In this document: positions 6,427-61,352 of the stretch, piece by piece
How the letters are laid out: every line of letters starts with the position of its first letter
Position numbering within the stretch: position 1 is the first letter of the stretch
Source: a virus
Length of the DNA stretch: 64,000 nucleotides
Strand: one strand, 5' to 3'
Virus record (IMG/VR): IMGVR_UViG_3300045988_072028
Span: 32,001-96,000 of that record
Translations under genes and position numbers: made by a program
The notes under the pieces: model-generated
What the model saw: the letters and a program-made list of their open reading frames with translations, nothing else
Database searches by the model: none
Told to the model about the DNA's origin: nothing

Positions 6427-6427
6427 T

Positions 6428-6435
6428 TATCTTTG
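6428..6435 (+). promoter_or_regulatory. Bacteroidota-type -7 promoter box
   Basis: Exact TATCTTTG 17 nt before the ATG of the giant ORF, immediately after a terminator. Confidence 0.5.
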
Positions 6436-6451
6436 TCAAAAACATTTAGTT

Positions 6452-12400: not shown

Positions 12401-12898
12401 GAGCAGGTTAATATCAAGAGATCTATTATCAATGTGGCGGTATTCGCCACGATGATGGCTATAGGAAGGGCTTTGATGGGATATAGGGAGGATAATGAGG
12501 ATAGCTGGTTCGGGCAGTTCATTACCTATATCGGGTTCAGGACGATCAATGAGATCGCTTCCCAGACATCCCCGTTCATGGAGCTTAACGCCATAGATAT
12601 GCTGCAAGATCCGCTGGTTACCGCCCGAAAGTTAGGCGATCTCACCGATCCTCGAAACTGGGATCCGTTCGCTACCGTCCAGACCGGCGTGTATAAGGGA
12701 GAGAGCAAGCTATGGAGGCAGCTCATGAAATTCTCGTTCGGTAAGCAATGGTATAATATCAAGACGGCTAGGGATATTAAGCAGACATCCGACTACTGGT
12801 TGATGACCAACGGCATGACGATGGGATTCTTCTTAGGAGGCAGGGATAAGGACGAGTCCGGGGAGGACGCTAATTGGTACTTTGACAGGGGAAGATAA
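6452..12898 (+). CDS. giant (2148 aa) virion-associated / ejected-cargo-type protein
   Basis: Uninterrupted 2148-codon ORF with a TATCTTTG box 17 nt upstream and a strong terminator downstream. The C-terminal ~200 aa carry hydrophobic helices (INVAVFATMMAIGRALMGY, FGQFITYIGF, YWLMTNGMTMGFFLGG). No DxDGD polymerase motif was found by eye. Confidence 0.85.
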   Translation: MSSCVIKRNKEGKITRVLTPSGEVSTLFDKIAGIAAVSDLNKAAEAYMTIYNDKFRSKFGDWTRSVPRNKEAARSISARLSSSEWGQLMSAKVLSAISDMDAPALARSLGNSDNVVAYLTSGEVGDVNDMAVVDTSTVQEVDLDSINEDNIGDTILKEASWDDIRAIRENIDIKETARMLWKAVESAFTGQRPNIRVKGGSIDGEIIFSGNVLPLNNIENYTPPSSRLVYDSGEPRLFFRSDDGKIHESYANAIKGSSGGRVEAGFLAGSVEESDVPSGTADISFGSSSITLNNSGSFIPILGISSNSDVSTRGGFVNYLIKKGLLSGERIRLGDRYYLTGAGNSDGLKIYNAMDALSRLRNRFGSQSSEMNVLGSIGFDTEVSNDLDLITTSGDKVTVSRSEIKGMLRQGKFEELNNKYDGFMELALSLMMEDNALYGSNVRGVIENEKAEDLQNRTDITNILSTLGIRVMGMSEYMDKYKMRNGVEPSARALSDMANGVIALAEGATVEDLNEEVAHFLIDTYRNQQEIDEVLDSVVGTPLWNQFAGRYYEVYGKEYQGEELDRMVKREILGKTLAQRFVPGMEQAVEDLASSEDAQLSLFGRIIRAIRNFFSTQRSDLNKVLDRIKESALADDPSAFDVLLLKDSDHLMYSLSDVDVANKLIKNGRSLERLYTRLQRMRSSQSQRIGESISLLRDIGEKVRQVGGELNKNNNLLSTKSVIATAKAEVEYLVTVASSLRKSGKGLDYETMQVIDNVYGEIVPLVRNLRGFVNNQAADYYGSNKVGMVEDMDDILRMAETSMSDINALKSDRNEDWLDGQLRMFNIPERYWNGIKKLIDNIHKDINVMSRFFGTLEHSGNAILGMLGQRLAKAYNDAHVEGVANINKMTKMMKERGWGIKDNEDLIQKINGKNSDYLDSSRDFAKYDLLLRTEQAKAIIDIYDLKNVTGKTEKQLIDLLLSDRGLKVKTRDDIVGYDGDKPITKAVYHVFKPTIQNFDISDMTFEDQQRYLDTINRWLDENQEKPMVQAYYDKIEKVNKKVEERLGRRVSQATSDFMTRIRRSRYVAMDKFIKNKKVDWDAFQSDPIAWRSYLDILRDRAIAKSEWYSDGTPKEAGSEALMMSEEIKAWDEAWAEEFGNTNEGRKASAEFKEILRGIERSEGGKAAFEFLLAGGHLGFSKDMWGSEEGDYYENLVDKITEQSVSSSRIEKVEEAMATINEINDQLRPLLIQYRDSTRYGEYDFDRLRGSSSLRKINELYDRLAEAKSVINAAASAEDIEMNMPDTVESGVTDSYRNALRDAVTYDKGMDEIKFAKEHMSARSRSQVDRMAAKLSQKNPSWTSMETTFLRKKYGPDFSDKLANDIAMGKANSILIEYARTRLYPYMRKYSPKGYSDFVRKINNGTYKVSDFFDAMESGISKEESVSRFGFDINMIDLSINNQWLDEADFESSFRNPNYNPDLGYGYHTPRFDKYKNEAFFKKYGITKEGEEATINKDKWEMRKELLNISRKAMEDYDERFRNIYQIPQISKGGVERMVQAGVDPKAAIGNAVRDIVGERVDDPIHGQGQDLGGLDENDNKYRMIPKYYLSKLENADDVSHDFAYSYSMLSLQAASYKYKRAALDDVMGYRNMMLETQYDGGKNPEATHAYRMFQDWVNASIYDVRINNKRTEWNIGNYKVDLNKLALMFTKFVSKSNLGFSPFVAATGALTGQANFLLEGMVGQYISKDSMKYAYGEAQKQLSTYVSEIGDINRTNKLYVVGEALGVFNVRNRVRSAAYNKIWRTLFRDLPFKMMEVLNSPLDPQVIISVMDDTRLYEGQFWSYSNFKEMMMKDRNMSANEAKRDWERLRDYSIWNLVNVKDGKIVAKNEANKDIIDRYIPTLSSRVRSMVQICDGALNEQNRVGASRNAILNMVLPHRGWFILAVQRAYKKAGFNFQTNQFEEGYMRTLWRLAGNVYNTMSEGRMGEAYDVLKEEYDKLTPYEQVNIKRSIINVAVFATMMAIGRALMGYREDNEDSWFGQFITYIGFRTINEIASQTSPFMELNAIDMLQDPLVTARKLGDLTDPRNWDPFATVQTGVYKGESKLWRQLMKFSFGKQWYNIKTARDIKQTSDYWLMTNGMTMGFFLGGRDKDESGEDANWYFDRGR

Positions 12899-12920
12899 CC
12901 GATATAGTATGACAAAAAAA

Positions 12921-12958
12921 ATAGCCAGTCAATTGTTTAAGACAATTTGATTGGCTAT
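12921..12958 (+). terminator. terminator hairpin after the giant gene
   Basis: ATAGCCAGTCAATTGT / ACAATTTGATTGGCTAT long imperfect stem, with an A-run before it and T-rich sequence after it. Confidence 0.65.
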
Positions 12959-12963
12959 ATTTG
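12956..12963 (+). promoter_or_regulatory. Bacteroidota-type -7 promoter box
   Basis: Exact TATATTTG 124 nt upstream of the antirepressor ATG. Confidence 0.45.
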
Positions 12964-12985
12964 CATTATGAAACAATGAATGACG

Positions 12986-13055
12986 GGATCTCACTTCAAG
13001 GTCATTCAATGTGTAAGATATTTTTGGCTCATTAGGATTTGTCGAGGTGAGATCC
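12986..13055 (+). promoter_or_regulatory. inverted repeat in the antirepressor leader
   Basis: GGATCTCAC (12986-12994) pairs with GTGAGATCC (13047-13055), separated by a 52-nt spacer. It lies between the -7 box and the antirepressor ATG. Confidence 0.5.
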
Positions 13056-13086
13056 GACATTTCCTTTTGAGCCTATTTTTTATATT

Positions 13087-13944
13087 ATGTGTAATATTGT
13101 TTTAAATGACAATTTGTCTATTAGATTGTATTTTGAGAAGGTTCTTGAGTTAGTTAAATCCGGAGAAGATTTTCCAGTTAATTTAGATGATGTTTGGCCT
13201 TTGATATATTCTGATAAAGGTAAGGCTGTTAGGGTTCTTACTGGTGATAATGGTTTTATCAAAGATATTGACTATAAGGTTTTTACCCAAAATGGCAAAA
13301 ACCCGGTTGGAGGAAGACCTGCGATTGTGTATATGATTTCTGTGTCTTGTATGGAATATTTAATAGCAAGAAAAGAAAGAAGAGTATTTGATGTATATAG
13401 GAGTGTGTTTCATGGTGCGGCAAATGCTTTTAATAAGATGGAAGAATCCGTGGAGAAGAATCTTCCGCATAATTATATAGAAGCGTTAGAGGCGTTGTTG
13501 GCATCCGAGAAAGAGAAGCAGGCGTTAGCTGAGGCCAAGAAAGCGGTAGAGGATGCTAAGAGAATATCCGATAGCATTATCAAAGAACAAGCCCCTAAGG
13601 TGGGATTCGCTGAAACGGCTATCATGGCCAATGACAAAGGTGATGATATGCTGATCCGTGATGTCAGGAGGGAATTGGAGTCTCATGGATGTGATATAGC
13701 GGAAAGATCGTTAAGAGAGTTTTTACAAGAACAAGGTTTCTTTTACAAGAATAAGAGAGAATGGATATTGACGGAGCATGTGATTAAGAAAGGTTACGCC
13801 CATTACAGGTACAACACGGATACCGGAGTCAGGAATACGGTTTATATGACTAGGAAGGGGTTTGAGAAAACGTTATATAATATCAGGAATATACCTAAAT
13901 CAAGAGAACTCTTTATTTCTTTCGGAGGCAAGATATTTGATTAA
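13087..13944 (+). CDS. phage antirepressor (AntA-like N-terminus, KilAC-like C-terminus)
   Basis: N-terminal DDVWPLIYSDKGKAVRVL...FIKDIDYKVF...GGRPAIVYMISVSCMEYL resembles AntA/AntB-type domains. Central LPHNYIEALEALLASEKEKQAL...APKVGFAE and the following basic region resemble KilAC. Confidence 0.6.
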   Translation: MCNIVLNDNLSIRLYFEKVLELVKSGEDFPVNLDDVWPLIYSDKGKAVRVLTGDNGFIKDIDYKVFTQNGKNPVGGRPAIVYMISVSCMEYLIARKERRVFDVYRSVFHGAANAFNKMEESVEKNLPHNYIEALEALLASEKEKQALAEAKKAVEDAKRISDSIIKEQAPKVGFAETAIMANDKGDDMLIRDVRRELESHGCDIAERSLREFLQEQGFFYKNKREWILTEHVIKKGYAHYRYNTDTGVRNTVYMTRKGFEKTLYNIRNIPKSRELFISFGGKIFD

Positions 13945-13949
13945 AGTAA

Positions 13950-13990
13950 GAGAAGGATAGGCGATTATCATCCTATCCTTCTCGTTTTTG
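13950..13990. terminator. bidirectional terminator between convergent modules
   Basis: Perfect 12-bp stem GAGAAGGATAGG / CCTATCCTTCTC followed by GTTTTTG. Lies between the plus-strand antirepressor gene and the minus-strand HAD gene. Confidence 0.8.
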
Positions 13991-13993
13991 TTA

Positions 13994-14518
13994 TCAGCTC
14001 TTATATTTCTTCACAAAATCATCCACATCCATATACTCACACCCGAAGTTCTCTGCCGTCTTCTTATCGGAGTCGGAGAACTGTCCTTCTTTCCCGGAAG
14101 CATCCCCGATCATCAAGATAGTATCGTATACGATCTTTTCTTCCTCATCTTCATCGTTATTCATGTATTCTATGAAATCCATATACTCTTTTATCATCCC
14201 TATATTTGGCTTCCTATTGACGTTGCGTTTATTATTGCTTTCGCAGTAATAAGCACTTACGGATACATCTGTATAATCTTCCAAGGCATTTGATATATAA
14301 TCGAATTTATATTCAAACATCTCTCTGTCCACGAATCCTTTTTCTATACCTCCCTGATTTGATATGATTAATATATCATCAGGAGCGTAATTTTTGATAG
14401 CCTCAAATACGTAGAGTTTGATTTTCATATCCCATATACCTTTAGGGAATGTATCTCCTGACAATGTTTCAATCAGTGTCCCATCTAAATCTGTTATTAA
14501 CAATTTATATTTTTTCAT
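13994..14518 (-). CDS. HAD-superfamily phosphatase (subfamily IIIA, PNK 3'-phosphatase / HisB-like)
   Basis: DLDGTL (DxDxT), ISNQGG, RKPNIGM and MIGDASG motifs occur in the canonical order. Confidence 0.75.
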   Translation of the reverse strand: MKKYKLLITDLDGTLIETLSGDTFPKGIWDMKIKLYVFEAIKNYAPDDILIISNQGGIEKGFVDREMFEYKFDYISNALEDYTDVSVSAYYCESNNKRNVNRKPNIGMIKEYMDFIEYMNNDEDEEEKIVYDTILMIGDASGKEGQFSDSDKKTAENFGCEYMDVDDFVKKYKS

Positions 14519-20352: not shown

Positions 20353-20600
20353 GCTTAAATATAAATATATCCCTTCTAGTTCTCACGGATATACGTATTC
20401 GTACTCATCTGGGGGAGATGTCTTGTATTCAACATCGCACTCCATAGTTGTAAATTTCATAGAAAATCATAGAAATAATTAAGATATCCTACTCCATTTT
20501 AGACGCTTCAACACATCCGGTAACCCGGCTGCTCTGCGTCCGTATAGCCGCATCAACTCCTACGGCTTGTATGTTAATCGCGGCGTTGAGATCCCTGTCG
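20353..20600 (-). ncRNA. candidate TnpB omega/right-end RNA scaffold
   Basis: In characterised TnpB elements the guide RNA overlaps the 3' end of tnpB and the right end. Here the 136-nt downstream spacer holds a hairpin (GGAGtgcGATGT...ACATCTCC, minus sense) and a TTCTATGA direct repeat. The boundaries are not determined. Confidence 0.3.
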
Positions 20601-21643
20601 ATCTCCAAGCCACAATCTTTACAAACAAATGTTCGATCCGATAATTTCAGATCTTTATTCTTCCAACCACATCTTGAACAGGTTTTCGAGGATGGGTAAA
20701 AACGATCTATAACAATCAGTTCTTTACCATACCACCTACACTTGTATTCAAGTTGGTTACGGAACATCGAGAAAGAAGCATCATATACAGAACCGGCAAG
20801 TTTGTGATTCTGTAGCATACCGGAAGCATTTAGATTCTCAATACAGATAACATCGTAATTATTTACCAGCATCGTGGTCAAATTATGCATGTACCATGAA
20901 CGCTTGTTGGCTATATCACGATGAAGTCTTGATACTTTTAGCCTGCATTTGTTTCTTCGATTACTTCCTAATTTCTTTCTTGATAAATGCCGTTGCATCC
21001 TTTTTAACTTCGCTTGGTTCTCACAAAGAAAATGGGGATTCTCAACAGCAATCCCATCAGATAATGTAGCTAATGTCTTAATCCCTAAATCAACTCCGAC
21101 TGTTTTGCTAGTTTTCTGTTTGTAACACTGTTCTGTTTCTACAAGAACTGATACGAAATATTGACCAGCACGGTTCTTTGAAACGGTACAGGAGATAAAA
21201 CGAGCGTTGTCTGGAACTCCACGATCGATAACAATCTTAACCCATCCGATCTTTTCGATCCGGATCTTATTGTTAGTGATTTTAAACTTCGGGAACGGCA
21301 ATCTAAACGACTGGTTGTCGTGTTTATTTTTGTAATTCGGTTTACCGAGTTTTTCTTTCCTGTTCTTGTTGAAGTATTGTCTGGAGAACTCGATAAAATC
21401 ACGTTGCTTCTGCTGCAAGGTGGCTGCCGATACTTCATTTAACCAAGGTTTTTCAATAACAAGATCCGACTTTGTCGGGAATTTCGGATTATGGTTTGTT
21501 TCTTTATCGTATGAGTTAAATGAGTCAACACAAGCATTCCATACAACACGTACGCATCCGAATGTTTTTGCAAGAAGTTCTTCTTGTGTTTTGTTCGGAT
21601 ACATACGATATTTATATGAACGCTTTATTAGACTCATCATCAA
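20489..21643 (-). CDS. tnpB: TnpB (IS200/IS605-family OrfB, RuvC-type RNA-guided nuclease)
   Basis: N-terminal YKYRMYPNKTQEELL. RuvC-I GVDLGIK, RuvC-II ICIENLN, zinc finger CSRCG-x14-CKDCG, and RuvC-III DRDLNAAINI. Confidence 0.9.
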   Translation of the reverse strand: MMMSLIKRSYKYRMYPNKTQEELLAKTFGCVRVVWNACVDSFNSYDKETNHNPKFPTKSDLVIEKPWLNEVSAATLQQKQRDFIEFSRQYFNKNRKEKLGKPNYKNKHDNQSFRLPFPKFKITNNKIRIEKIGWVKIVIDRGVPDNARFISCTVSKNRAGQYFVSVLVETEQCYKQKTSKTVGVDLGIKTLATLSDGIAVENPHFLCENQAKLKRMQRHLSRKKLGSNRRNKCRLKVSRLHRDIANKRSWYMHNLTTMLVNNYDVICIENLNASGMLQNHKLAGSVYDASFSMFRNQLEYKCRWYGKELIVIDRFYPSSKTCSRCGWKNKDLKLSDRTFVCKDCGLEIDRDLNAAINIQAVGVDAAIRTQSSRVTGCVEASKME

Positions 21644-27854: not shown

Positions 27855-28208
27855 TTAATCCTCCAAAGTCATTATAATCTTATCTTTCCCGATAATAACC
27901 TCATTCCCGCTCCTTACATCAAAGCATTTCCCTTCATCTGCCTCCTTGAAATAAAGAGCACCATTGTACTCGAACAAACCGAAGCCGTAATCGTCTAGCT
28001 TCATTTCGTTAAGTCTCTTGAATTTGTATATTTTCCCCATATTTTCTGTATTTTTTATATTTTGTATTACTAAACACATCAAAAAGATAGATAAGATCGT
28101 TGCTATTATCCCTCCATAAAATTTAGTCGAATCATTCTTTTCATTTCCTTCTACTATCAAATAGATAGAACACGCCATTATTATAAAGGTAGATCCTAAT
28201 TCAATCAT
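27855..28208 (-). CDS. membrane protein (two predicted TM helices)
   Basis: Hydrophobic stretches FIIMACSIYLIV and GGIIATILSIFLMCLVI. Confidence 0.5.
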   Translation of the reverse strand: MIELGSTFIIMACSIYLIVEGNEKNDSTKFYGGIIATILSIFLMCLVIQNIKNTENMGKIYKFKRLNEMKLDDYGFGLFEYNGALYFKEADEGKCFDVRSGNEVIIGKDKIIMTLED

Positions 28209-40248: not shown

Positions 40249-40718
40249 GATAATAATCTGGTTTTTAATTTACCATCCTCCTCGACTCTAGGTGCGAGAT
40301 CCCTCATCCTTCTGGCTGCCAACAGCCATACGTTGCCAAACTCGTCCAAGAGCCGGCTGAAATCCATCGTATCTAATAGATAATCGAATCTTGTATGCTC
40401 ATCAGCCGTCAAGTAGATAATGTTATCATTATCCTCAGCAACTGATTTATATTTCCGTTTAGGGTATAAGTGGCATATGTTGCTTACCCCCGGGCATGGT
40501 ATGTATGCGCCGGTAGCAGATCTCCTTGTCATACTCAATCTAGCCACATGGGCGCCAAAGAAAACGGCTAGGCTCTTCCCCTTTGGCTTGGCCTTTACCC
40601 GTATCGCCGCCCTTTCCTTTGGCGGTAGCTCCTTGGCTCTGCATGCGGGACATAACCCCTTACTCCTTATGGTTACCATCCTTCCGCATCTCTCACACGG
40701 TAACATCCTACCTCTCAT
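40218..40718 (-). CDS. zinc-ribbon protein with possible HNH-like motif
   Basis: CERCG...CPAC at the N-terminus. NICHLYPKRKY...DNDNIIYLTADEH resembles an H-N-H spacing. Weak. Confidence 0.4.
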   Translation of the reverse strand: MRGRMLPCERCGRMVTIRSKGLCPACRAKELPPKERAAIRVKAKPKGKSLAVFFGAHVARLSMTRRSATGAYIPCPGVSNICHLYPKRKYKSVAEDNDNIIYLTADEHTRFDYLLDTMDFSRLLDEFGNVWLLAARRMRDLAPRVEEDGKLKTRLLSWIEENKNYF

Positions 40719-41083
40719 GCCTTTTTCTTTTTATAACTTTTGTTGAACTCCATAAGGCTCATAGCCCTATACCTCTTAAGCCTATTAATCTTACCCTCAG
40801 TCCAATCTTGATCCTTGAAGTTAATGATCGTATCGAATATCTGAGCCAGCTCCCGGATATTAAAATTCCTGTTCTGTATTTTTTTATAGAACCCCGATCT
40901 GCTATATCCTAATTTAGAAGCTAGATAAGTTTTGTTAGACAATGTGAGGATACGATAAATCGTACCCTCCATCTTGCTTATCTCCATCAACTTCTCGGCG
41001 ACGGATGATGTGGTCTCATAGCTAGCTTTATTGCTTACTATTCTCATGTTTCTCCGGATTCCTGATCTTACCATCAAACTCAT
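40715..41083 (-). CDS. putative helix-turn-helix DNA-binding protein
   Basis: NKTYLASKLGYSRSGFYKKIQNRNF looks like an HTH. Weak. Confidence 0.4.
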   Translation of the reverse strand: MSLMVRSGIRRNMRIVSNKASYETTSSVAEKLMEISKMEGTIYRILTLSNKTYLASKLGYSRSGFYKKIQNRNFNIRELAQIFDTIINFKDQDWTEGKINRLKRYRAMSLMEFNKSYKKKKA

Positions 41084-53023: not shown

Positions 53024-53331
53024 GTCGTTATTATTTTTATGTACTTAATCACCTCTTCTGGTAAGGATGCTAGATCCTTAACTCTTTTACCGAAATCGTA
53101 TGAATGTCTCCTATATGGATAATAATCACCAACATATGTTCCTATTCCTTGTGGATGAAATGGATTTTCGCTGCATGCAAACACAGGATAATATACCAAC
53201 CCACTACTATCTTTACCCTTATCACTTACACATATTATCGTGTATCTATCTATCTCCCCATCGCCAATATCATACACCCTTACTTTTACCTTCACGCCAT
53301 TGGCGTTTGTTATAACATTATTCATACGCAC
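53020..53331 (-). CDS. hypothetical protein
   Basis: ATGA overlap with the downstream ORF. Confidence 0.5.
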   Translation of the reverse strand: MRMNNVITNANGVKVKVRVYDIGDGEIDRYTIICVSDKGKDSSGLVYYPVFACSENPFHPQGIGTYVGDYYPYRRHSYDFGKRVKDLASLPEEVIKYIKIITT

Positions 53332-53354
53332 CTCCTTTGTTGTTCACGATCAAA

Positions 53355-53585
53355 CTAATCTATCTCCCTACCATATATAGTATACGATCCACACCAGCCA
53401 CGATTCTCATTCGAGACCCTAATATGATCTACAGGCTTATCTCCTGCCATACAATTAGCGTAAGATAATACCTCCGACATGTTTCTGAACCCGGAATCCG
53501 CCGCCGATTTTATAAGTTTCCGATCGCACCCGAATACCCATACCTTCATAATATCCCTTTCCTTTACAGTTCTTCTTATACGCAT
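53355..53585 (-). CDS. hypothetical protein
   Basis: Same-strand ORF. Confidence 0.5.
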   Translation of the reverse strand: MRIRRTVKERDIMKVWVFGCDRKLIKSAADSGFRNMSEVLSYANCMAGDKPVDHIRVSNENRGWCGSYTIYGREID

Positions 53586-54046
53586 AATCTTGCCATAAAA
53601 TAAATAAACATAAAATCTATTCTCTCTTTGTTATCATCCATCCTATGCCCGGTGATCTCAAAAACAACCCTACGCTTTTCTATAGTCTGTATATTATCTA
53701 ACTGAATAGCTATGTAAGGATATTTCATAACTTTCTCTCTATTGATGTTATACAAAATAGCGTTGACATCTTGCCTGCGAAAATACATATTTACCCCTAT
53801 ATAGCTGGCAACCAAAAGACATTCGTCTATTACCCCATCAGTATCGAATAGCAATAACATATCATCCTTCTCGATAGTATATTCCATATCAAGGATCTTG
53901 ATACGTTTGCTTCCGTCCTTCTTATCTGATATAAGAACCTCTATCATATCCTTATCAGTCGTAAGGATATAATACGCCTCGTCCTTTGTAATATTATTAC
54001 GAAGATAAGACAGTATCTCATCTTGTAATTTTATAATCTCGTCCAT
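53576..54046 (-). CDS. hypothetical protein
   Basis: First ORF downstream of GC-rich element A. Confidence 0.55.
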   Translation of the reverse strand: MDEIIKLQDEILSYLRNNITKDEAYYILTTDKDMIEVLISDKKDGSKRIKILDMEYTIEKDDMLLLFDTDGVIDECLLVASYIGVNMYFRRQDVNAILYNINREKVMKYPYIAIQLDNIQTIEKRRVVFEITGHRMDDNKERIDFMFIYFMARLCV

Positions 54047-54071
54047 GTTATTAGTATTTTATATTACCACG

Positions 54072-54140
54072 CCAAAGGAAAGAACGGCAGCCGACACCCG
54101 CAGCCTACCACGCCGTGACACCGCCGCCCGTTCCCCTTGG
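54072..54140 (-). repeat. GC-rich intergenic element A
   Basis: Minus sense reads CCAAGGGGAACGGGCGGCGG...GGCGTGG...GCTGCCGTTCTTTCCTTTGG. The termini are mutually complementary. Confidence 0.7.
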
Positions 54141-54142
54141 TA

Positions 54143-54472
54143 TTATTCTGGCACCTCTAATTTCCCGTAATAAGGATAAAAACAACCGTCTCGATAAACC
54201 GAATATCTGAGCGTTTTATCCTTTGCTTCATAGATGGAAACACAACCGCTGTTATAAGCGTTGGATAGTTCTTTTGCTACAAATCCGCCTATTCGCTTAT
54301 AGGTTTTAGGCGTATCCCTCAACGGCCTGCCTACATATATTTTTACTCTCTTGCACTTCTTGTCGCCTACGTATATATCCTTTCCACTAAGCTCCATTAA
54401 ATACATGAATCTCATATCAACCGATTTTAAATCCAACATTCCTCTATCTCTATCTCCATATGATCCGCCCAA
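54143..54472 (-). CDS. hypothetical protein
   Basis: Its stop lies 3 nt from GC-rich element A. Confidence 0.5.
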   Translation of the reverse strand: MGGSYGDRDRGMLDLKSVDMRFMYLMELSGKDIYVGDKKCKRVKIYVGRPLRDTPKTYKRIGGFVAKELSNAYNSGCVSIYEAKDKTLRYSVYRDGCFYPYYGKLEVPE

Positions 54473-54669
54473 TCACATCTATCAACGTCCTCACCATCCT
54501 CGAAGTAATAGTAAGCCCATACATGGACGCCTCCTACCTCTATACACCCATCACTTTTCCATTCTACCAACCCGTCTTGCCTTACCGCGTTGGTAGGCTC
54601 AGCCCCCAGCGACAGCAACTCATTTACTATACTACCGCCAAATACGTTTCTCGCTTCTTCTCTTGTCAT
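54427..54669 (-). CDS. hypothetical acidic protein
   Basis: First ORF downstream of GC-rich element B. Confidence 0.5.
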   Translation of the reverse strand: MTREEARNVFGGSIVNELLSLGAEPTNAVRQDGLVEWKSDGCIEVGGVHVWAYYYFEDGEDVDRCDWADHMEIEIEECWI

Positions 54670-54710
54670 ATCAATATCAGATTTTAATATTATACTACCG
54701 CCAAAGGAGG

Positions 54711-54770
54711 ACAGAGACGGACGACCAGCGGGGCCAACCCCACGCCATCGCCGCCCCCGTTTTCCCTTGG
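54711..54770 (-). repeat. GC-rich intergenic element B
   Basis: Minus sense reads CCAAGGGAAAACGGGGGCGGCGATGGCGTGGGG...CCTCCTTTGG. It shares the 5' block with elements A and C. Confidence 0.7.
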
Positions 54771-54903
54771 TTTCCTCCGCATCACCCTATACTAATAAAC
54801 AATATCCACCACCAATAACACCATACCCACCATCACTCACAACTACCTTGCCTTGACGGGGAACTCCTACCACTTGCAAACTTTTACATTTGATTGGAAG
54901 ATA

Positions 54904-55003
54904 CCCCTTGCTTGAAAGGCGTTTTCCTTGCTCGAAAGGTGTTTCCCTTGTTTGTTGGTGTTTTTTCTTGTTTGGAAAGGTTTTTCCTTGTTTGGAGGTG
55001 TCC
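54904..55003. repeat. five tandem 20-bp direct repeats (iteron-like)
   Basis: Units are CCCCTTGCTTGAAAGGCGTT, TTCCTTGCTCGAAAGGTGTT, TCCCTTGTTTGTTGGTGTTT, TTTCTTGTTTGGAAAGGTTT and TTCCTTGTTTGGAGGTGTCC. The CTTG core recurs at exactly 20-bp spacing. Confidence 0.85.
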
Positions 55004-55066
55004 CATCACGCAAATCCCAAATCTCCCTCGAAATTCCCACGAAAACCCAAGGCCTTCCGATACTTT

Positions 55067-55080
55067 GTTCCACGTGGAAC
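55067..55080. repeat. perfect 14-bp palindrome GTTCCACGTGGAAC
   Basis: Read directly. An 8-bp palindrome AAGGCCTT lies at 55049-55056. Confidence 0.8.
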
Positions 55081-55086
55081 GTTGAT

Positions 55087-55290
55087 TCAGTCTAGGATAT
55101 CGAGGTCTTTGTTCTTGATTGCCTTATATACTTGCCTAATACAATGTATTGATAATAAAACCAATAAAGAAACTATGATTATAGGCAGAGCGTCGCCCGT
55201 AGCTATAACGTACCGCCCCAACTCAAACGCCATATACCCACAAAACAAGGTGAGTACGAAATATATAAATACACCCATAAAAATATACAA
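55087..55290 (-). CDS. small membrane protein (two TM helices)
   Basis: FMGVFIYFVLTLFCGYMAF and LPIIIVSLLVLLSI. An isolated ORF within the non-coding region. Confidence 0.45.
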   Translation of the reverse strand: MYIFMGVFIYFVLTLFCGYMAFELGRYVIATGDALPIIIVSLLVLLSIHCIRQVYKAIKNKDLDILD

Positions 55291-55635
55291 TAAGTAACCA
55301 CGATTTTAAAATTGAACGCAAATAATACAATTAATTGAGTATCAATAAAATAATATATATCAACCCCTAGAGCTACCTCTAAGGAAAGACAAGCCTAGAT
55401 ATAGATAAAAAATATACAATAAGTACCGCCTATTATATACCTTTTAGGATCGATTCAAGCGCAAATCCATGCATAAGGGTACAATTCACCCGCCCGTATG
55501 GATATAGACATATACAAAATGATACATAATAAAGTATTTTACTTACATATTTATAATTAAGGCTTAAAATTTACCGCCTCAACACTTTTATATGTAAGCA
55601 AAACATATGATTATGCTGTCATTTTGTAAAATTAG

Positions 55636-55681
55636 ACACAAAAAAGCCCTTTCGTCCTATATCACTACAGTACGGAAGGGC
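55636..55681 (-). terminator. rho-independent terminator
   Basis: Minus sense reads GCCCTTCCGT...ACGAAAGGGC followed by TTTTTTGTG, just after the stop of 55714..55920. Confidence 0.7.
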
Positions 55682-55713
55682 ACAAACTTTAAAATCAAAT
55701 AAAAACAAACGAT

Positions 55714-55920
55714 CTATTGTCGCAATTTGTTTGCCATGTAACTAACATGTTTCCGCCTACATTTATCAGATTCCCTACTGCAATCTAATTTATTAGACTT
55801 GTATAGTTCTTTGGTAAGCTCAATATAAAACTCAATTTGAGACTTTCTTATAGCTTCTAAAGCCTTTTCTTTTTGAATAGATAGTTTCCTATTCAAATTA
55901 TCAAATTTCTTTTTGTACAT
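55714..55920 (-). CDS. small basic coiled-coil protein
   Basis: 68-aa ORF preceded by GC-rich element C and followed by a hairpin terminator. Confidence 0.5.
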   Translation of the reverse strand: MYKKKFDNLNRKLSIQKEKALEAIRKSQIEFYIELTKELYKSNKLDCSRESDKCRRKHVSYMANKLRQ

Positions 55921-55940
55921 AATATATTCATTTAATTACA

Positions 55941-56030
55941 CCAATAAGAATACGGCACGGCTATGAAGGCACAAAGCCGCCGTTATCGATACGGACAGCA
56001 GAGCACACCACGCCCGCCCGTCTCCGTTGG
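55941..56030 (-). repeat. GC-rich intergenic element C
   Basis: Minus sense reads CCAACGGAGACGGGCGGGCGTGGTG...TTCTTATTGG. Confidence 0.6.
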
Positions 56031-56387
56031 ATTTGTCCCTTTGCCCCGAACGAACGAAGCCAAATACGTACATACGTCACCCGTGATACGTACCGACAAG
56101 GCGTATTAAGTCCGTCAATTTAACCGCACTAAATACCCTTGTAAGGGTTGTTATTTGCTATCCGTACACATGTTAGGTATTTAAGCAACCCTAACATACG
56201 TCGTATTGATACATTAGCACGGAAATAACACCGTAATACACTCAATGCGTGCTACTCTCACAACGCACTAACATACGCCCTATACATGCGTATATACACC
56301 AACGTACCCCGTATTATAATACGGCCTATTAAGGAGACCTTAACGTACTAACCCTACTTGCAATAAGGCCAAAAGGATAACGGTACG
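55950..56387. repeat. dense cluster of ATACG/CGTAT (TACG-core) motifs
   Basis: ATACG starts at 55950, 55989, 56064, 56072, 56086, 56196, 56273 and 56319. CGTAT starts at 56102, 56202, 56289 and 56310. Several CGTAC/GTACG copies are also present, and there is a palindrome ATACGTCGTAT at 56196-56206. Confidence 0.8.
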
Positions 56388-56576
56388 TCTCCGGACTGGC
56401 AACGCACCCAAATCACATTGTTAAGCGGCGATCTATCTATACATGCTATCGATACCCTACCAGCATGTATATCCTTATTGCAATATGTTAAATAACTCGC
56501 TATTTTAGTCTGAGTCCAGTTGCGCGACGGGGACGCAATAGCATGCAACCACGACGGGCTATTATAGCCCGCCTAA

Positions 56577-57116
56577 TTATCTATCATTTTTAGGGTGCGT
56601 TAGGTAGTAAGTAATACATTTGGCTATCAAATTATATGTGTATCGCTTGATAGGTATAGCTACTTTGATGATACGTTTATCCGATCCATTAAACACCTCA
56701 TAGTAAGGCACGCTACCCGTGTCGTTGTATGCTATAGGCTCACAATATCCAAAGCGTTTATGCGTATTGCCTATTATAGCAATTTCGTTTATCTTATCCT
56801 CTGATAATTTCACATTCTTTTCCGCATCCTGCTTGTCGTAATATTCTCTTTCCACCTCTTTATATGCGCAAAAAGTATTGTCAATACGTGGAAGGATCTC
56901 TTTACAAAGTTGTATTACAACCTCTTTATCTTTAGCTAATGATACCAAAGCGGGTACAATTTCCTTATCTACCTTGATATCATTTTCCTTTAATATCTCA
57001 TTTATTTCTTTACCAGATTTAAAAAGTTGGGCCCATGCCTTTACGGCACCTGTTAACGTCTTTTCACTTGCCTTCTTTACCTCGCTTTGTACTTTAGTTA
57101 ACTCTTTATTTGTCAT
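56577..57116 (-). CDS. hypothetical protein
   Basis: 179-aa ORF transcribed divergently from 57634..58185. Confidence 0.55.
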   Translation of the reverse strand: MTNKELTKVQSEVKKASEKTLTGAVKAWAQLFKSGKEINEILKENDIKVDKEIVPALVSLAKDKEVVIQLCKEILPRIDNTFCAYKEVEREYYDKQDAEKNVKLSEDKINEIAIIGNTHKRFGYCEPIAYNDTGSVPYYEVFNGSDKRIIKVAIPIKRYTYNLIAKCITYYLTHPKNDR

Positions 57117-57339
57117 TAGATTTTACCCATACCTTTGGGATTTATATTGGCTTCTGGTACGCCAGTTTGTTAATATTGTTATCTCACATTGCAAATATAA
57201 TACATGTTTTATTGTCAAACAAATATTTTACAATAAAAATTCAACGATTATATATAATAAAACTAATCAAATGCAAATGTATATTAAAATATTGGTTTAT
57301 ATAATTGATAATCAACTATTTAAATGAAAAATAAGCATT

Positions 57340-57520
57340 CTTTTTTTCGGTTCGCTGATCGTTTGCCGTTCTTGTTTCCCGTCCTTCGTGGATTGGGGGG
57401 GGCTGGTCCAAAAACGGCAGCCCGGCCGGGCCGATTTCGGGGAGGTGGTCCGTCCCGCATATCCCCGCATATCCCTACATGTCCGGCGTCCCAACATATC
57501 CCATCTCTCATCCCCTAACG
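57340..57520. promoter_or_regulatory. GC-rich island in a divergent intergenic region
   Basis: Contains a stem GCCGTTCTTG (57365-57374) / CAAAAACGGC (57409-57418) enclosing a G8 tract (57395-57402). Also a 12-bp palindrome GCCCGGCCGGGC (57420-57431). Tandem 10-mers CCGCATATCC, CCGCATATCC and CTACATGTCC span 57455-57484, with CAACATATCC at 57492-57501. Confidence 0.6.
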
Positions 57521-57593
57521 ACTTTCTCATTAATTTTATTACATTTGCGATATAATTAAAACATAACATATTATGAATAAAGAAGTTGAATAC

Positions 57594-57610
57594 ATGGGGG
57601 GGGTATTTAA
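57594..57610 (+). promoter_or_regulatory. G9 homopolymer abutting a TATTTAAG box upstream of the plus-strand island
   Basis: ATGGGGGGGGGTATTTAAG. G9 occupies 57594-57602, 32 nt before the ATG at 57634. Confidence 0.4.
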
Positions 57611-57633
57611 GACCCCTCAGATAAGGAGGGGGT

Positions 57634-58185
57634 ATGTTTAGGCGCAGGACTTCTTCTCCCGGTAAGATCCACTACCGTGTTAATATAAACAAGAATATGT
57701 GTCTTGGCTTTGTAGATATATATATTGATGGGAAGCCATATCAACCTGGTTTTAACGGATCTTATCTTGATATATATCGCGATAAGAAGATAAAAACTAT
57801 AAGCATAAGTGGCCAGATATCATATCTAAATCCGAAAAATGAGTACAATGTTATTTTGGGCATAAGTGGAGGTATTATAGAGGGAACCCTTACGTATCAA
57901 TATAATTCGGGTATGCATTGCGAGTTGGCTAATAAGGTGATATACGGGAATAGGATAACTAATTTTGTTCCTGTAACGGTGATAGAAGATCCTGGGAAGA
58001 TCATTAATTTCACTTACAGATCTGAATTACATACTCAGGTTTTAGATGAAAGTTATGTAAGTTGGGATGGTGATTATGTATTAAACGATAATTGTATAGT
58101 AACTGATCTTTGTTCGGGATGTGAATCTTATGCCTATGGGAAAAGTTCTCATGGTAACTATCGAGTAACGGTAAGGATAGTGTAA
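57634..58185 (+). CDS. hypothetical beta-rich protein
   Basis: 183-aa ORF. First gene of the plus-strand island, 32 nt after a G9 tract. The start could be the internal ATG (MCLGF). Confidence 0.5.
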   Translation: MFRRRTSSPGKIHYRVNINKNMCLGFVDIYIDGKPYQPGFNGSYLDIYRDKKIKTISISGQISYLNPKNEYNVILGISGGIIEGTLTYQYNSGMHCELANKVIYGNRITNFVPVTVIEDPGKIINFTYRSELHTQVLDESYVSWDGDYVLNDNCIVTDLCSGCESYAYGKSSHGNYRVTVRIV

Positions 58186-58187
58186 TC

Positions 58188-58258
58188 CCAAGGGAAGGAG
58201 GGAGACCTCGTCCTTCCGGGCCTCCCCGTCCTACCACCGCCCCTCACGTTCTTTTTGG
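58188..58258 (+). repeat. GC-rich intergenic element D (plus orientation)
   Basis: CCAAGGGAAGGAGGGAGACC...CCGCCCCTCACGTTCTTTTTGG. It has the same terminal pattern as A-C, oriented with local transcription. Confidence 0.55.
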
Positions 58259-58322
58259 CTTCTCCATGTATTGTCTTTGACCGGATATCAAAAATTCATA
58301 TCTTTGGAACAAAACTACAATC

Positions 58323-58577
58323 ATGTTTAGAGACATACTACATAAAATAAAGATCTTCTTCTGCGATGACGATATCGAGAAGATAAATGTAAGGGATAGT
58401 ACGGTTATCCGCAACAACGAGATACATAAGATGTATGATGAGATACTTAATGAGCTAGGTGATTTGGCCACTGTCGTGTCTAGGAACTACGTGTATGGCA
58501 GGATAAAGGACAGGACGGGATTGAGCATCCGTCATATCAGCAGGATAATAAACCATACTAAAGTTGAGGAGATATGA
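58323..58577 (+). CDS. small putative HTH protein
   Basis: C-terminal RIKDRTGLSIRHISRIINHTK is helix-turn-helix-like. Confidence 0.45.
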   Translation: MFRDILHKIKIFFCDDDIEKINVRDSTVIRNNEIHKMYDEILNELGDLATVVSRNYVYGRIKDRTGLSIRHISRIINHTKVEEI

Positions 58578-58852
58578 TAAAGGACGTAATGGAGAGGGAT
58601 ATGATAAATGAGATATCCACGTTGTTTGTAATGATATTCACGTCAGGGTTGATGTTTGTCATGCCGATATTAGATATAGGGTATAATGATATCCTTGTCA
58701 TAATAGGATTCGGGATAATACTATCTTTTATGTTAACCATAATCCCGATCTTGCTTTCTTACGATATAAGGGATGAGATCATTGAGTTGATTGAGGATAT
58801 GGACAGACAGATCGTAGTAGATACTTCGGTATATAAAACGGATCTGCCCTAA
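58574..58852 (+). CDS. small membrane protein
   Basis: ATGA overlap with the upstream ORF. Hydrophobic LFVMIFTSGLMFVMPIL and VIIGFGIILSFMLTIIPILL. Confidence 0.5.
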   Translation: MIKDVMERDMINEISTLFVMIFTSGLMFVMPILDIGYNDILVIIGFGIILSFMLTIIPILLSYDIRDEIIELIEDMDRQIVVDTSVYKTDLP

Positions 58853-58868
58853 GAAATTCCTAGGGCAG
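58844..58868. terminator. bidirectional hairpin between convergent genes
   Basis: CTGCCCTA...TAGGGCAG, overlapping the stop of 58574..58852. Confidence 0.6.
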
Positions 58869-58876
58869 GTAATGTG

Positions 58877-59155
58877 CTATTTTCTTTTAACGTACTTATC
58901 TATCATATCTATTGATAGTTTAGCTCCCAGCTCCTCCTCCAATAGGTTAAGGTAGTTCCGGTGCAGGCATCCGCCCCGCTCCACCTCCCTAAAGCCGGCC
59001 CCGTCCCTGATCCTGACCAGCCCTTTCCTTGGATCCATGTCGATAAGATCCCGAAGCTCGTTCATATTCTTGAACCGGTTCTCTATTACCTTAAATACAT
59101 CGATCTTAGGTCTCTTATCCTTATCCTTGGACTTTATTTTAATTCTTCCACTCAT
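58877..59155 (-). CDS. hypothetical basic protein
   Basis: Convergent with the plus island. Confidence 0.5.
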   Translation of the reverse strand: MSGRIKIKSKDKDKRPKIDVFKVIENRFKNMNELRDLIDMDPRKGLVRIRDGAGFREVERGGCLHRNYLNLLEEELGAKLSIDMIDKYVKRK

Positions 59156-59160
59156 ATCAA

Positions 59161-59358
59161 TTATCCAGTAACTTTACATGTAATATGATTCATATTATTA
59201 CTGCAATAAGCGCACATAGATACGTAGGGAGAATATACCATTCCACATACCGGACATCTCCATCCATATATAACAGGATTTGTTTGTTTGTCAATTTCTT
59301 TCAAGCCCTCATTAGTAGTGGATGATGTATTTTTATTTTCCATATCATTCATTACCAC
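59161..59358 (-). CDS. zinc-ribbon small protein
   Basis: CPVCG...CAYC. Confidence 0.5.
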   Translation of the reverse strand: MVMNDMENKNTSSTTNEGLKEIDKQTNPVIYGWRCPVCGMVYSPYVSMCAYCSNNMNHITCKVTG

Positions 59359-59935
59359 GGTGGTTTCCTAACCGACGTTCGCTGGTCATGAAGCCATCCT
59401 TATTTATCTTATCTGTACTTCCAAATCCATTATCACCTCTATCAGATTTTCCAAGATCTTCTAATGACTCCACTTCTTCCCATACGATACGTTCCCTTCT
59501 ACGAATAAGAAGCTGTGCTACCTTACCACCGACATTACAATAATAAGGACTATGCCTATTCATTTTTCTGTGAACTATTATAATCTCCCCACTATATCCT
59601 TCATCAATGGTAGCAGGGGAGTTTTGCATAATTAGCTCGCTATTAGTAAAACCACTACGTGGACGGATTTCCATCTCATAATCCTCTGGCAATGCTACAT
59701 GTACGCCAGTATGATATATGATCCTGCCTCCGTCAAGTTCTATATCCTTAACGAACAAATCCATGCAAGCGTCTTCTTTATGAGCGTATTCAGGCAGCTT
59801 AGCCCCTTTTTCCAGCCAGATCTTGACCTTACACGTATCTATACCATCAAGTAACTCAATTGCCTCTTTATAGCTCATAGGCTGCTCTGAGGCTAATGAA
59901 ATGGCTCTTGCCAATAAATCTTTAATCTTACTCAT
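59345..59935 (-). CDS. dut: dUTP diphosphatase (trimeric dUTPase)
   Basis: All five motifs are present: DACMDL, IRPRSGF, ATIDEGYSGEI, KVAQLLI and SDRGDNGFGSTD. Confidence 0.85.
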   Translation of the reverse strand: MSKIKDLLARAISLASEQPMSYKEAIELLDGIDTCKVKIWLEKGAKLPEYAHKEDACMDLFVKDIELDGGRIIYHTGVHVALPEDYEMEIRPRSGFTNSELIMQNSPATIDEGYSGEIIIVHRKMNRHSPYYCNVGGKVAQLLIRRRERIVWEEVESLEDLGKSDRGDNGFGSTDKINKDGFMTSERRLGNHRGNE

Positions 59936-60681
59936 TTTATTTTGTTTTTAAATTCTTTCCCTTTCGGGCATTGTAATTTACATTCCTCACCACAAGCGGA
60001 ACATTTGGGTCTCATTCCGGGCACCCCTCTTCCCCCGTACGGCCAGTAGGCATAATCGCAGACGCTCCAGAACGCCTCCATCGCCTTGATCTTGGCATCG
60101 ACGGTTATCTTCTCCTTCACCTTTTTCATGCTTTTCCTGAACTCGTCTTTCATATCCTTCCCTTCTATCTGTCTGGCTTTACGTCTCTCGTTCCACCAAT
60201 TGTAGTAGAATTTATCTGCCATCTTATAAGCTTCGGGGTCAAATTTATCACGGTGCAGGATAGGGGCGTCCTTGATCTTTCTCAAATTCCTGCCACAAAC
60301 ATAAGCAAGCCCGGCGTACGGAGGTATGTCCTTAGGATCAACCAACCCATCCGGCACGCAGTAGTAGAAGTAGTTGGGCCGGCCGTACCTGACCCAGTCC
60401 CCGGTCTCGTATAGGGCTTGCTTCCGGCCCTCGAACCATCCTTGCATTACTTGGTGCTTACCCTCCTTCTCGAAATCCTTGTTATAGTCAGCTAACGAGA
60501 TCTTAACCTCAACCTCATATGCGTACATGGATCTGGTTATAGCCAGATAATCGGACTCCCAGTTATATACATACAGGTTATTTATCACCCATTTAGGCGA
60601 TACCAAGAACTGTCTGTTAAGGATATCCAATATCCCTCTTTCAGTGTATTCAATACCTTTATTTGATTGCCGTGTTCCCAT
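59932..60681 (-). CDS. MmcB-like / PD-(D/E)XK-fold protein
   Basis: ESDYLAITRSMYAYEVEVKISLADYNKD fits the D...E-x-K plus S--D pattern of MmcB-like proteins. C-terminal Cys cluster CSACGEECKLQC. Confidence 0.4.
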   Translation of the reverse strand: MGTRQSNKGIEYTERGILDILNRQFLVSPKWVINNLYVYNWESDYLAITRSMYAYEVEVKISLADYNKDFEKEGKHQVMQGWFEGRKQALYETGDWVRYGRPNYFYYCVPDGLVDPKDIPPYAGLAYVCGRNLRKIKDAPILHRDKFDPEAYKMADKFYYNWWNERRKARQIEGKDMKDEFRKSMKKVKEKITVDAKIKAMEAFWSVCDYAYWPYGGRGVPGMRPKCSACGEECKLQCPKGKEFKNKIK

Positions 60682-60949
60682 CTCCTGTCAGAGGATTATT
60701 CCTTAACCCAACCGCCATTATAGCGTTCGATACCAATCTCCGTAATCCGCTTATATCCTTATCATGGAATGAGAAAGTGGTTAAGTTATGCGATTCAGTA
60801 ATCTTATCATAAGACTTTATCATCAACACAGCCACATACTCACCCATCATCTTTTCATTCATGATATCAAGATCGATTATGCCGTGATCTATTAGATCAA
60901 CCACATCCCATCCTGATGGTAGATACGTTTTTATCTGATTAATGTCCAT
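60659..60949 (-). CDS. hypothetical protein
   Basis: Same-strand ORF just downstream of a terminator hairpin. Confidence 0.5.
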   Translation of the reverse strand: MDINQIKTYLPSGWDVVDLIDHGIIDLDIMNEKMMGEYVAVLMIKSYDKITESHNLTTFSFHDKDISGLRRLVSNAIMAVGLRNNPLTGDGNTAIK

Positions 60950-60964
60950 AGCAAATAGTATTTA

Positions 60965-60991
60965 TAAAAAGGAGGGTCGTGCTACCCTCCT
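60965..60991 (-). terminator. rho-independent terminator downstream of the tRNA pair
   Basis: Minus sense reads AGGAGGGT-AGCACG-ACCCTCCT followed by TTTTTAT. Confidence 0.7.
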
Positions 60992-61119
60992 ATAGATTAC
61001 ACACGAAAAATAGAACTGAAAGCGATCTTAAGCACGTAAGATTTTATTAATTCCCGTAGGCTGTCTACCGGTTATCGTTAATTACCGACCTGCGGGAATA
61101 TGTTTAAGAAAACACCATG

Positions 61120-61195
61120 TGGGGAGTGGGGGAATCGAACCCTTATCCACGCTACGATTAGGAATCGTAAATTCTATCCGTTAAATTAACTCCCC
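61120..61195 (-). tRNA. tRNA-Arg (anticodon CCT)
   Basis: A hand fold of the minus-sense 76 nt gives a 7-bp acceptor GGGGAGT/ACTCCCC, a D stem ATTT/GAAT and an anticodon stem TACGA/TCGTA with loop TTCCTAA. The T loop is TTCGATT. The T stem has only 3 GC pairs plus two A-C mismatches, and the variable loop is 8 nt. Confidence 0.6.
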
Positions 61196-61278
61196 TTTAA
61201 GCGTCCTGATCCTCCCGGACAAGGACACTACATAAATCTAAACTCTAAACCTAATGACAAATTCTATTAATCCAACTG

Positions 61279-61352
61279 TGGACCCGGCCGGACTTGAACC
61301 GACAACCTACTGGTTATGAGCCAATTGCTCTTACCAATTGAGCTACGGGTCC
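61279..61352 (-). tRNA. tRNA-Met or tRNA-Ile2 (anticodon CAT), elongator type
   Basis: A hand fold of 74 nt gives acceptor GGACCCG/CGGGTCC, a D stem GCTC/GAGC and an anticodon stem ATTGG/CCAGT with loop CTCATAA. The T arm is GTCGG-TTCAAGT-CCGGC. The G1-C72 pair argues against an initiator. Confidence 0.85.

Follow-up and report, generated by a model that had tools for sequence, protein, structure and literature searches.

The DNA analyzed here, hereafter the window, is a 64,000-nucleotide stretch of viral sequence (positions 32,001 to 96,000 of the IMG/VR record IMGVR_UViG_3300045988_072028) belonging to an epsilon crAss-like phage with a genome of approximately 150 kb. Where transcription of its long leftward early/replication block begins, in DNA with few genes, the window contains an array of short direct repeats, hereafter array 1, which is one allele of a helically phased, hypervariable minisatellite with a conserved position and constitutes one half of a duplicated module. 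The two copies of this module border a conserved block of about 2.45 kb (approximately 54994-57441), hereafter the cassette. We tentatively interpret array 1 and its counterpart at the opposite edge of the cassette as boundary elements of a terminal repeat or concatemer junction that would bind a protein cooperatively, a reading to which we attach appreciably less than even confidence. The closest annotated record is that of crAssE-Sib (OR575929, 151 kb), with 52% amino acid identity on a helicase. Epsilon crAss-like phages have no DNA polymerase of their own; a division of the group into two genera has been proposed (PMC11054128; PMC7886860), and the window seems to fall in the one that excludes crAssE-Sib. 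Our literature search found no description of these arrays.

Each copy of the module consists of T/G-rich units, followed by a 19-bp sequence, GGAGGTGNNCCNTCNCGCA, which we call the J-box, and then by C-rich units of about 10 bp. Its elements in the window are the following:

54887-55003, + strand: array 1, T/G-rich, with five 20-bp units carrying a CTTG core (54904-55003) and a degenerate leading unit, TTTGATTGGAAGATACC
54994-55012, + strand: J-box 1, GGAGGTGTCCCATCACGCA, overlapping the last unit of array 1 and forming its conserved right-hand junction
55010-55050, + strand: degenerate C-rich 10-bp units (AAAnnCCC), with CCC at 55016, 55026, 55036 and 55046
57361-57402, + strand: degenerate T/G-rich units (GTTTCCCGTCCTT twice and CTTGTTTCCC, 57361-57394) and a run of eight G (G8), upstream of J-box 2
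57441-57459, + strand: J-box 2, GGAGGTGGTCCGTCCCGCA, 2,447 bp to the right of J-box 1 and in the same orientation, at a mosaic boundary
57454-57512, + strand: array 2, C-rich units of about 10 bp (CCCGCATATC and degenerate copies), starting at J-box 2

The CTTG cores of array 1 stand at 54907, 54927, 54947, 54967 and 54987, exactly 20 bp apart, in units that read CCCCTTGCTTGAAAGGCGTT, TTCCTTGCTCGAAAGGTGTT, TCCCTTGTTTGTTGGTGTTT, TTTCTTGTTTGGAAAGGTTT and TTCCTTGTTTGGAGGTGTCC from first to fifth; all five cores could be re-located, which bears out the preliminary description of this DNA. A sixth, degenerate unit precedes the five at about 54887. The pattern YCCTTGYTYG has seven exact matches in the 64 kb, five of which fall in the array in exact 20-bp register, and we estimate that, at a background of about 2e-4 per position, four further in-register matches would arise by chance with a probability of about 1e-10. 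The array occurs once in the window, and Tandem Repeats Finder gives only 2.5 copies because the units diverge. Its surroundings (54880-55060) show an AA/TT periodicity of 10 bp that exceeds the 99th percentile of the window but is not the window maximum. The strongest AA/TT periodicity of about 10 bp lies at 27900-28200, around a 9-bp repeat, ATATTTTCT, present three times (28039-28067).

Other properties previously attributed to array 1 fared unevenly. The CCTT...AAGG half-palindrome ascribed to each unit is found in units 1 and 2 and weakly in unit 4, but neither in units 3 and 5 nor in any relative with 10-bp units. It had also been stated that no open reading frame (ORF) explains the array; mechanical ORFs do overlap it on both strands (54890-55297 on the + strand and 54867-55073 on the - strand), but they are non-coding because relatives differ by indels of 10 or 20 bp, and a coding repeat is ruled out on the same ground. 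The exclusion of a CRISPR array stands, the units being contiguous and without spacers. The number of five units in the window may itself be the product of assembly collapse, because the longer arrays of relatives break assemblies.

Relatives of the same genus were collected by two IMG/VR searches, one anchored on the 14-bp palindrome GTTCCACGTGGAAC to the right of the array and the other on a neighboring 156-aa protein, each of which returned hundreds of human-gut contigs of about 150 kb; the statistics for the array cover 96 distinct complete versions. The array is present at the same site in 96 of 96, within a common layout consisting of a variable left border, the array of CTTG units, a conserved last unit (CCTTGTTTGGAGGTG...), approximately 60 nt of C-rich DNA and GTTCCACGTGGAAC. 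Its size ranges from 3 to at least 29 counted cores, or more than 30 units, and in one relative (L146) it exceeds 600 bp. Units are either of 10 bp (TTTCCCTTGG, TTTACCTTGA and others, 34 distinct 10-mers in total) or of 20 bp (55 distinct 20-mers), and the distance from core to core is 10 bp in 248 cases and 20 bp in 163, with minor classes of 9, 11, 19 and 21 bp. The exact 20-bp phasing of the earlier account therefore holds for the window but becomes 10±1 or 20±1 bp across relatives. The array is nonetheless present and helically phased in every relative examined, and the absence or loss of phasing that the preliminary description had envisaged as telling against its claim is not observed.

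The number of units changes very rapidly. Among 27 pairs of relatives with flanks (800 bp) that are 98-99.5% identical, none shares the same length between anchors; the copy number of the array turns over faster than 1% divergence of the flanks. The array is therefore a true variable-number tandem repeat (VNTR), with head-to-tail units and copy-number polymorphism in close relatives as in minisatellites, yet its core and helical period are kept. One relative (L171/L036, IMGVR_UViG_3300045988_101376) has a deletion of about 255 bp between an isolated upstream unit, TTTCCCTTGG, and the array, of which three units are left; the deletion is either genuine, in a minimal allele that is still viable, or the result of collapse during assembly. 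A scan of bacterial genomes returned a single match, in a contig of 16.4 kb (L283, NZ_JBHMEP010000020.1) from the whole-genome shotgun assembly of Vibrio olivae. This contig encodes a protein 100% identical to the 156-aa protein of the phage and is probably an assembly contaminant.

For the sister genus, we examined crAssE-Sib together with 80 relatives from IMG/VR. An array is again present at the syntenic site, immediately before the gene that opens the leftward block and beyond the small membrane-protein gene, here with units of 21 bp (TTGAATTTTGTTGGTAGGGAG, at least seven copies), 15 bp, approximately 30 bp or 51 bp. The core TTTGTTGG is common to these units and to CTTGTTTG(T/G)TGG of the window, and the arrays end in similar G-rich/C-rich junctions, which read GGGAGTGCCCTCCC in the sister genus versus GGAGGTGTCCCCTCC in the genus of the window. 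crAssE-Sib also possesses an analogous pair of arrays, in which the unit of array 2, CTCTCATCACATAAAC, resembles CCCATCACGCAAAT of the window. Comparison with the cultured but distant epsilon-group phage Cellulophaga phi4:1 was uninformative, synteny having diverged too far.

The J-box pattern has only two matches in the window, even when two mismatches are allowed, both on the + strand; J-box 1 is kept as GGAGGTG(T/C)(C/A)CC(C/A)TC(C/A)CGCA in all relatives. The four C-rich units that follow J-box 1 at exact 10-bp spacing resemble those of array 2, whereas the T/G-rich units preceding J-box 2 (57361-57394) resemble those of array 1. To judge from this comparison, the module is present twice in direct orientation, its left copy with an expanded upstream half and its right copy with an expanded downstream half. 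Array 1 thus abuts the block on the left of J-box 1 and array 2 on the right of J-box 2, and the same arrangement is seen in crAssE-Sib. Array 2 is likewise variable, reaching at least 11 units, having units of 7 bp or 58 bp, or being replaced in some relatives by unrelated DNA or by a different downstream module. Sequences are conserved between the J-boxes and become variable or mosaic just outside each of them. Among 83 distinct junction pairs, J-box 2 mostly lies 2,360-2,380 bp from the palindrome GTTCCACGTGGAAC, and a few longer distances reach 2,575 bp. A tandem repeat with a period of 11 is reported at 55019-55044, within the C-rich units. G8 homopolymers lie at 57395-57402 and 57595-57602 and vary from G8 to G12 in relatives, the contigs of which end there; the second, approximately 30 nt upstream of a gene that begins at 57634 on the + strand, is a possible site of phase variation.

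The turnover of array 1 might be taken to indicate a functionless, slippage-prone minisatellite in non-coding DNA, in which case the 10- or 20-bp phasing would simply reflect the unit length passed on as units were duplicated in tandem. Copy number and unit sequence indeed change faster than the flanks diverge by 1%, alleles with three units exist (L171), the graph breaks seen in thousands of assemblies suggest heterogeneity within samples, and a constant period is automatic in tandem repeats. We nevertheless consider this explanation unlikely. All genomes of the two genera keep an array at this position, in spite of being compact elsewhere; the CTTG/TTTGTTGG core and the junction outlast changes in unit length; and only periods near multiples of 10 bp occur in the genus of the window. 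Moreover, the isolated upstream copy is conserved, and array 1 has a partner, array 2, at a homologous J-box.

The cassette delimited by these modules is most likely the direct terminal repeat (DTR) of the phage; its size and layout match the DTRs of other crAss-like phages. The DAC15 record contains an exact DTR of 1,842 bp with small leftward ORFs, then a rightward gene and tRNAs, which is the layout of the window at 55087-61352. Prototypic crAssphage has terminal direct repeats (TDRs) of 1,853-2,452 bp, on the basis of doubled coverage, of read starts and of long reads, none of which spans the repeat (PMC6712665). ΦcrAss001 has short DTRs and ΦcrAss002 uses pac packaging (PMC8042965); the ΦcrAss001 record is circularised arbitrarily, and its DTR cannot be located there. 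The PhageTerm-derived start of the crAssE-Sib genome (PMC11054128) also falls within the cassette. A boundary module duplicated around a 2.45-kb cassette points to the formation of genome ends at least as strongly as to replication. More specifically, it is possible, if rather doubtful, that the J-box modules are the cleavage or recognition boundaries of a DTR of about 2.45 kb and that the arrays are protein-loading tracks setting the terminase cut or an ejection pause. In the mechanism that we propose for the preferred reading, short sites recurring once or twice per helical turn would be occupied cooperatively, along a single face of the DNA, by a phage protein, which would position cutting or stopping at the J-box. 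Candidates for this protein are the small subunit of the terminase and proteins that bind genome ends or control ejection. Copy number would drift by replication slippage, and we propose that it is free to do so because one or a few units suffice. The ejection pause might resemble the first-step-transfer stop of T5, and each strain would thereby have its own, tunable genome ends.

In both genera, numerous contigs terminate within the arrays, with a second hot spot of breakage 2.4-2.9 kb further on, and Logan contigs stop within the array or at G8. In Logan/ENA assemblies (L288-L290) the cassette appears as an orphan contig of about 2.45 kb in the genus of the window or about 2.75 kb in the Sib genus, ending in the last array units and at the G8 run or J-box 2; protein clusters from such orphan contigs (P0006-P0240) have thousands of members. 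These ends were rejected as proof of physical termini, for they fall in repeat units or G8 runs. Two contigs (084575 and 077290) both start and end within array 1, and are therefore breaks of a circular map in the repeat rather than proof of a terminus.

Several observations weigh against the interpretation of the modules as boundaries of a terminal repeat. The start of the crAssE-Sib genome was set by PhageTerm with a p value of 1.5e-22, and its authors report no DTR (PMC11054128). By synteny this start maps to approximately 55630, about 80 nt past the stop of a 68-aa ORF, which is some 600 nt inside the cassette and not at a J-box. The terminal repeat is deduced from size and synteny only. 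There are no tandem arrays at the boundaries of the DAC15 DTR, the genes of which show no homology to those of the cassette, and scans of about 40 ORFs with Pfam and PHROGs identified no array-binding protein. Because the J-box pattern was defined post hoc (a match of 15 out of 19 positions is expected about 0.15 times in 128 kb), its significance derives only from position and orientation. Assembly breaks at repeats and homopolymers fully explain why contigs end at the arrays, and no contig in our list, which is incomplete, carries the cassette at both ends.

The preliminary description had regarded the array as a platform for origin-binding or regulatory proteins. Its phased, non-coding units do have the character of a binding platform, but the specific reading as an iteron origin gained no support in our analysis. 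In an iteron-type origin, an initiator would bind the phased units, bend or wrap the DNA, melt an AT-rich stretch and load the DnaB-like helicase of the phage together with the host replisome; the two modules could then be two origins. Five 20-bp direct repeats spaced by two helical turns and continued by phased A3/C3 units would suit this function, as would the AA/TT periodicity already mentioned. AT-rich DNA is close by (55100-55700 with 34% GC, beginning about 100 bp to the right of the array, and 57117-57340), no repeated 13-mer-like element being defined. Lacking their own DNA polymerase, epsilon crAss-like phages must recruit the host replisome (PMC7886860; PMC11054128), and for crAssphage a preprint predicts two origins, separated by about 2.6 kb, where the replication block begins and where coverage is raised and reads end (PMC10983915). 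These crAssphage origins, however, are Ori-Finder predictions within a region that long reads show to be a terminal repeat. Direct repeats of approximately 17-22 bp at whole helical turns, as in iterons, are present in the window, but many relatives have 10-bp units, which, like a range of 3 to more than 30 copies, are atypical of copy-control iterons. No DnaA box (TTATCCACA, with at most one mismatch) occurs in 53158-58405, and no Rep, winged-helix or other DNA-binding domain was detected by Pfam and PHROGs in about 40 ORFs across 32598-59935, a scan that distant or novel initiators could escape. The two ORFs previously singled out as helix-turn-helix candidates (40715..41083 and 58323..58577) showed no DNA-binding domain in these scans. 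In addition, the replication genes are 15-20 kb away from the array, and GC skew follows transcription without an independent switch in the array region. An origin of this type therefore seems to us improbable.

The remaining elements around the array and in the cassette bear upon two further explanations, and are the following:

54712-54759, - strand: conserved GC-rich hairpin, then promoter-like TTTGGCGGTAGTATAAT just upstream of the ATG at 54669
54761-54770, + strand: isolated conserved 10-bp unit, TTTCCCTTGG, about 120 bp to the left of the array
55067-55080, no strand assigned: 14-bp palindrome, GTTCCACGTGGAAC, 7 nt beyond the stop codon of the - strand 63-aa gene
55087-55278, - strand: 63-aa membrane-protein gene, hydrophobic, the leftmost of the cassette, with a weak DUF6358 match
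55279-55296, - strand: promoter-like ACTTATTGTATATTTTT, directly before the ATG of the 63-aa gene, with a second copy at 55408-55425
55714-55920, - strand: 68-aa ORF, with a terminator-like hairpin downstream (55645-55682)
56577-57116, - strand: gene of a 179-aa protein, the first leftward-transcribed gene of the cassette, found in both genera

From left to right, a - strand gene (54427-54669) is followed by TTTGGCGGTAGTATAAT, the GC-rich hairpin and the isolated unit, and then by about 120 bp of variable DNA, the array, the 14-bp palindrome and the 63-aa gene. The isolated copy of TTTCCCTTGG occurs in lineages of both unit types, with CCAAGGGAAA at its site in nearly all of 95 distinct sequences. 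GTTCCACGTGGAAC folds into a hairpin (5-bp stem, 4-nt loop). All 36 distinct relatives retrieved through the protein anchor, independently of the palindrome, carry it unchanged, while its flanks vary. Two perfect palindromes had been described here, and both exist at the coordinates given for them; AAGGCCTT (55049-55056), however, is palindromic in none of the 36 distinct relatives and was discarded as a chance feature specific to the window, leaving GTTCCACGTGGAAC as the real one.

With such elements on both sides, the array might serve as a transcriptional platform or insulator, on the units of which a repressor or activator would polymerise, or RNA polymerase would pause, between the promoters of the cassette and TTTGGCGGTAGTATAAT in front of the gene at 54669. 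It lies between a small gene with promoter-like motifs (55279-55296 and 55408-55425) and a hairpin with a promoter-like element (54690-54760), and the conserved isolated unit about 120 bp away would permit DNA looping. Five TACCGCC motifs and the invariant CACGTG palindrome are located within the same 1 kb, and in phi14:2, another crAss-like phage, transcription of early non-coding DNA is strong. Yet we identified no regulator, the adjacent downstream proteins being acidic and not conserved between the genera, and large variation in copy number would drastically alter regulation. A regulatory role also leaves unexplained the second, different array with a shared J-box 2.4 kb away, and we judge it quite improbable. 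The possibility that the binding protein is encoded beside the array is unsupported, the 80-aa downstream protein being acidic and non-homologous to its positional counterpart in Sib. TACCGCC has five copies in the same orientation in 945 bp (54633-55578) and 20 in the window versus 3.9 expected, and it is also present in the control region of Sib (CCCTACCGCCT, twice).

An element acting at the level of RNA is very improbable. In this case the - strand transcript, with (CAAGGRAAA)n, would be an unstructured, protein-sponging RNA or, together with the adjacent G-tracts, would promote an R-loop or G-quadruplex. The array is indeed unstructured as a single strand (it folds worse than shuffled sequences, z = +1.19) and has one hairpin on its 5' side, formed by the palindrome, and a GC-rich one on its 3' side. 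The C-rich units form a G-tract cluster on the - strand, which is one of only three G-quadruplex-type motifs in the window (55016-55048). However, nothing in Rfam matches even at E <= 1, the sister genus, with - strand units reading CTCCCTACCAACAAAATTCAA, does not keep the GGA-type motif, and the 3' hairpin has a tail of only three U. The hairpin at 54712-54759 varies too little among relatives for covariation to be assessed. Bacteroidales are not known to possess CsrA or Hfq.

Within the cassette, the 63-aa gene shows 87-95% identity in L001 and has a 61-aa ORF as its counterpart in crAssE-Sib; it is easily lost to length cut-offs. The motif ACTTATTGTATATTTTT in front of it, of which crAssE-Sib possesses two counterparts (AAAAAATACAATAAG), is likely an early promoter or leader element. 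Approximately 600 nt without convincing ORFs lie at 55940-56577, GC-richer than their flanks and with several ATACG...CGTAT inverted repeats. This stretch is conserved at 85-95% in relatives and has no match in Rfam; by analogy with the highly expressed early long non-coding RNAs of phi14:2, it is possibly a non-coding RNA. The 179-aa protein has the same length in both genera, with 30% identity between them (E 7e-25). Its AlphaFold model is confident, with a predicted local distance difference test (pLDDT) of 83 and a predicted template modeling score (pTM) of 0.73, and neither a fold match nor a sequence match was found in the PDB. It may therefore represent a new fold of an immediate-early protein.

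In the wider window, genes on the + strand occupy 1-14000, including those of tail fibers and of a 2,148-aa virion protein, whereas the - strand genes at 14000-57116 include a methyltransferase, helicases, exonucleases, a DnaB-like helicase and a primase-like protein. A search of the array region for tRNAs found none. An IS200/IS605-family-like transposase (phrog_506, E 5e-122) lies inside the replication block at 20489-21643 on the - strand, and a 135-bp tandem repeat (740-1046, 2.3 copies, 76% matches) lies within the 639-aa tail-fiber-like ORF at 117-2036.

Among known systems, the terminal repeat of phage T7 is flanked by arrays of short repeats (SRL and SRR), and that of T5 ends, on its inner side, in a repeat-rich injection-stop region. 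As in these phages, a block is bordered here on either side by non-coding arrays of short repeats, next to likely early promoters. The differences are that the terminal repeat is inferred in the present case, that the units of 10 or 20 bp are helically phased and vary in number between strains, and that arrays 1 and 2 have a J-box in common despite their different sequences; homology to T7 or T5 is absent. The iterons of lambda ori, P1 incC/incA, R6K and RK2 are comparable in their direct repeats of about 20 bp with two-turn spacing, phased A-tracts and AT-rich DNA, but no Rep gene or DnaA boxes were found here, units are of 10 bp in relatives, copy numbers are unconstrained and the module is duplicated around a cassette. 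Partition centromeres (R1 parC with ten 11-bp units, pSK41 parC with 20-bp units, F sopC with twelve 43-bp units, and tubC) share with the present arrays tandem short phased units in redundant or variable copies, and bind small adaptor proteins cooperatively. In contrast to these centromeres, Pfam and PHROGs scans detected no ParA, ParM, TubZ or ribbon-helix-helix (RHH) adaptor domain near the array or in any of the scanned ORFs. A further resemblance, in size, in position at the head of the replication-strand block, in small ORFs and in an adjoining opposite-strand gene with tRNAs, is to the DTRs of DAC15 (1,842 bp) and crAssphage (1,853-2,452 bp), even if the DAC15 DTR has no arrays at its edges and shares no protein homology with the cassette.

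The arrays described here explain a systematic assembly artefact, which bears on completeness calls and 'pseudo-termini' of these genomes, and array 1 lends itself as a natural VNTR marker with which strains of these phages could be followed. They also illustrate a mode of evolution of cis-acting elements in which helical phasing and a short core are kept while the length and number of units turn over. The single PhageTerm start is the only mapped terminus in the epsilon group, for which the J-boxes at 54994 and 57441 now offer precise candidates for the genome ends and the terminal repeat. Epsilon crAss-like phages account for a sizeable share of the viral reads of the human gut (PMC7886860). 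Should the J-boxes prove to be the boundaries of a DTR, one of the most abundant groups of human-gut phages would have genome ends that are strain-specific and tunable.

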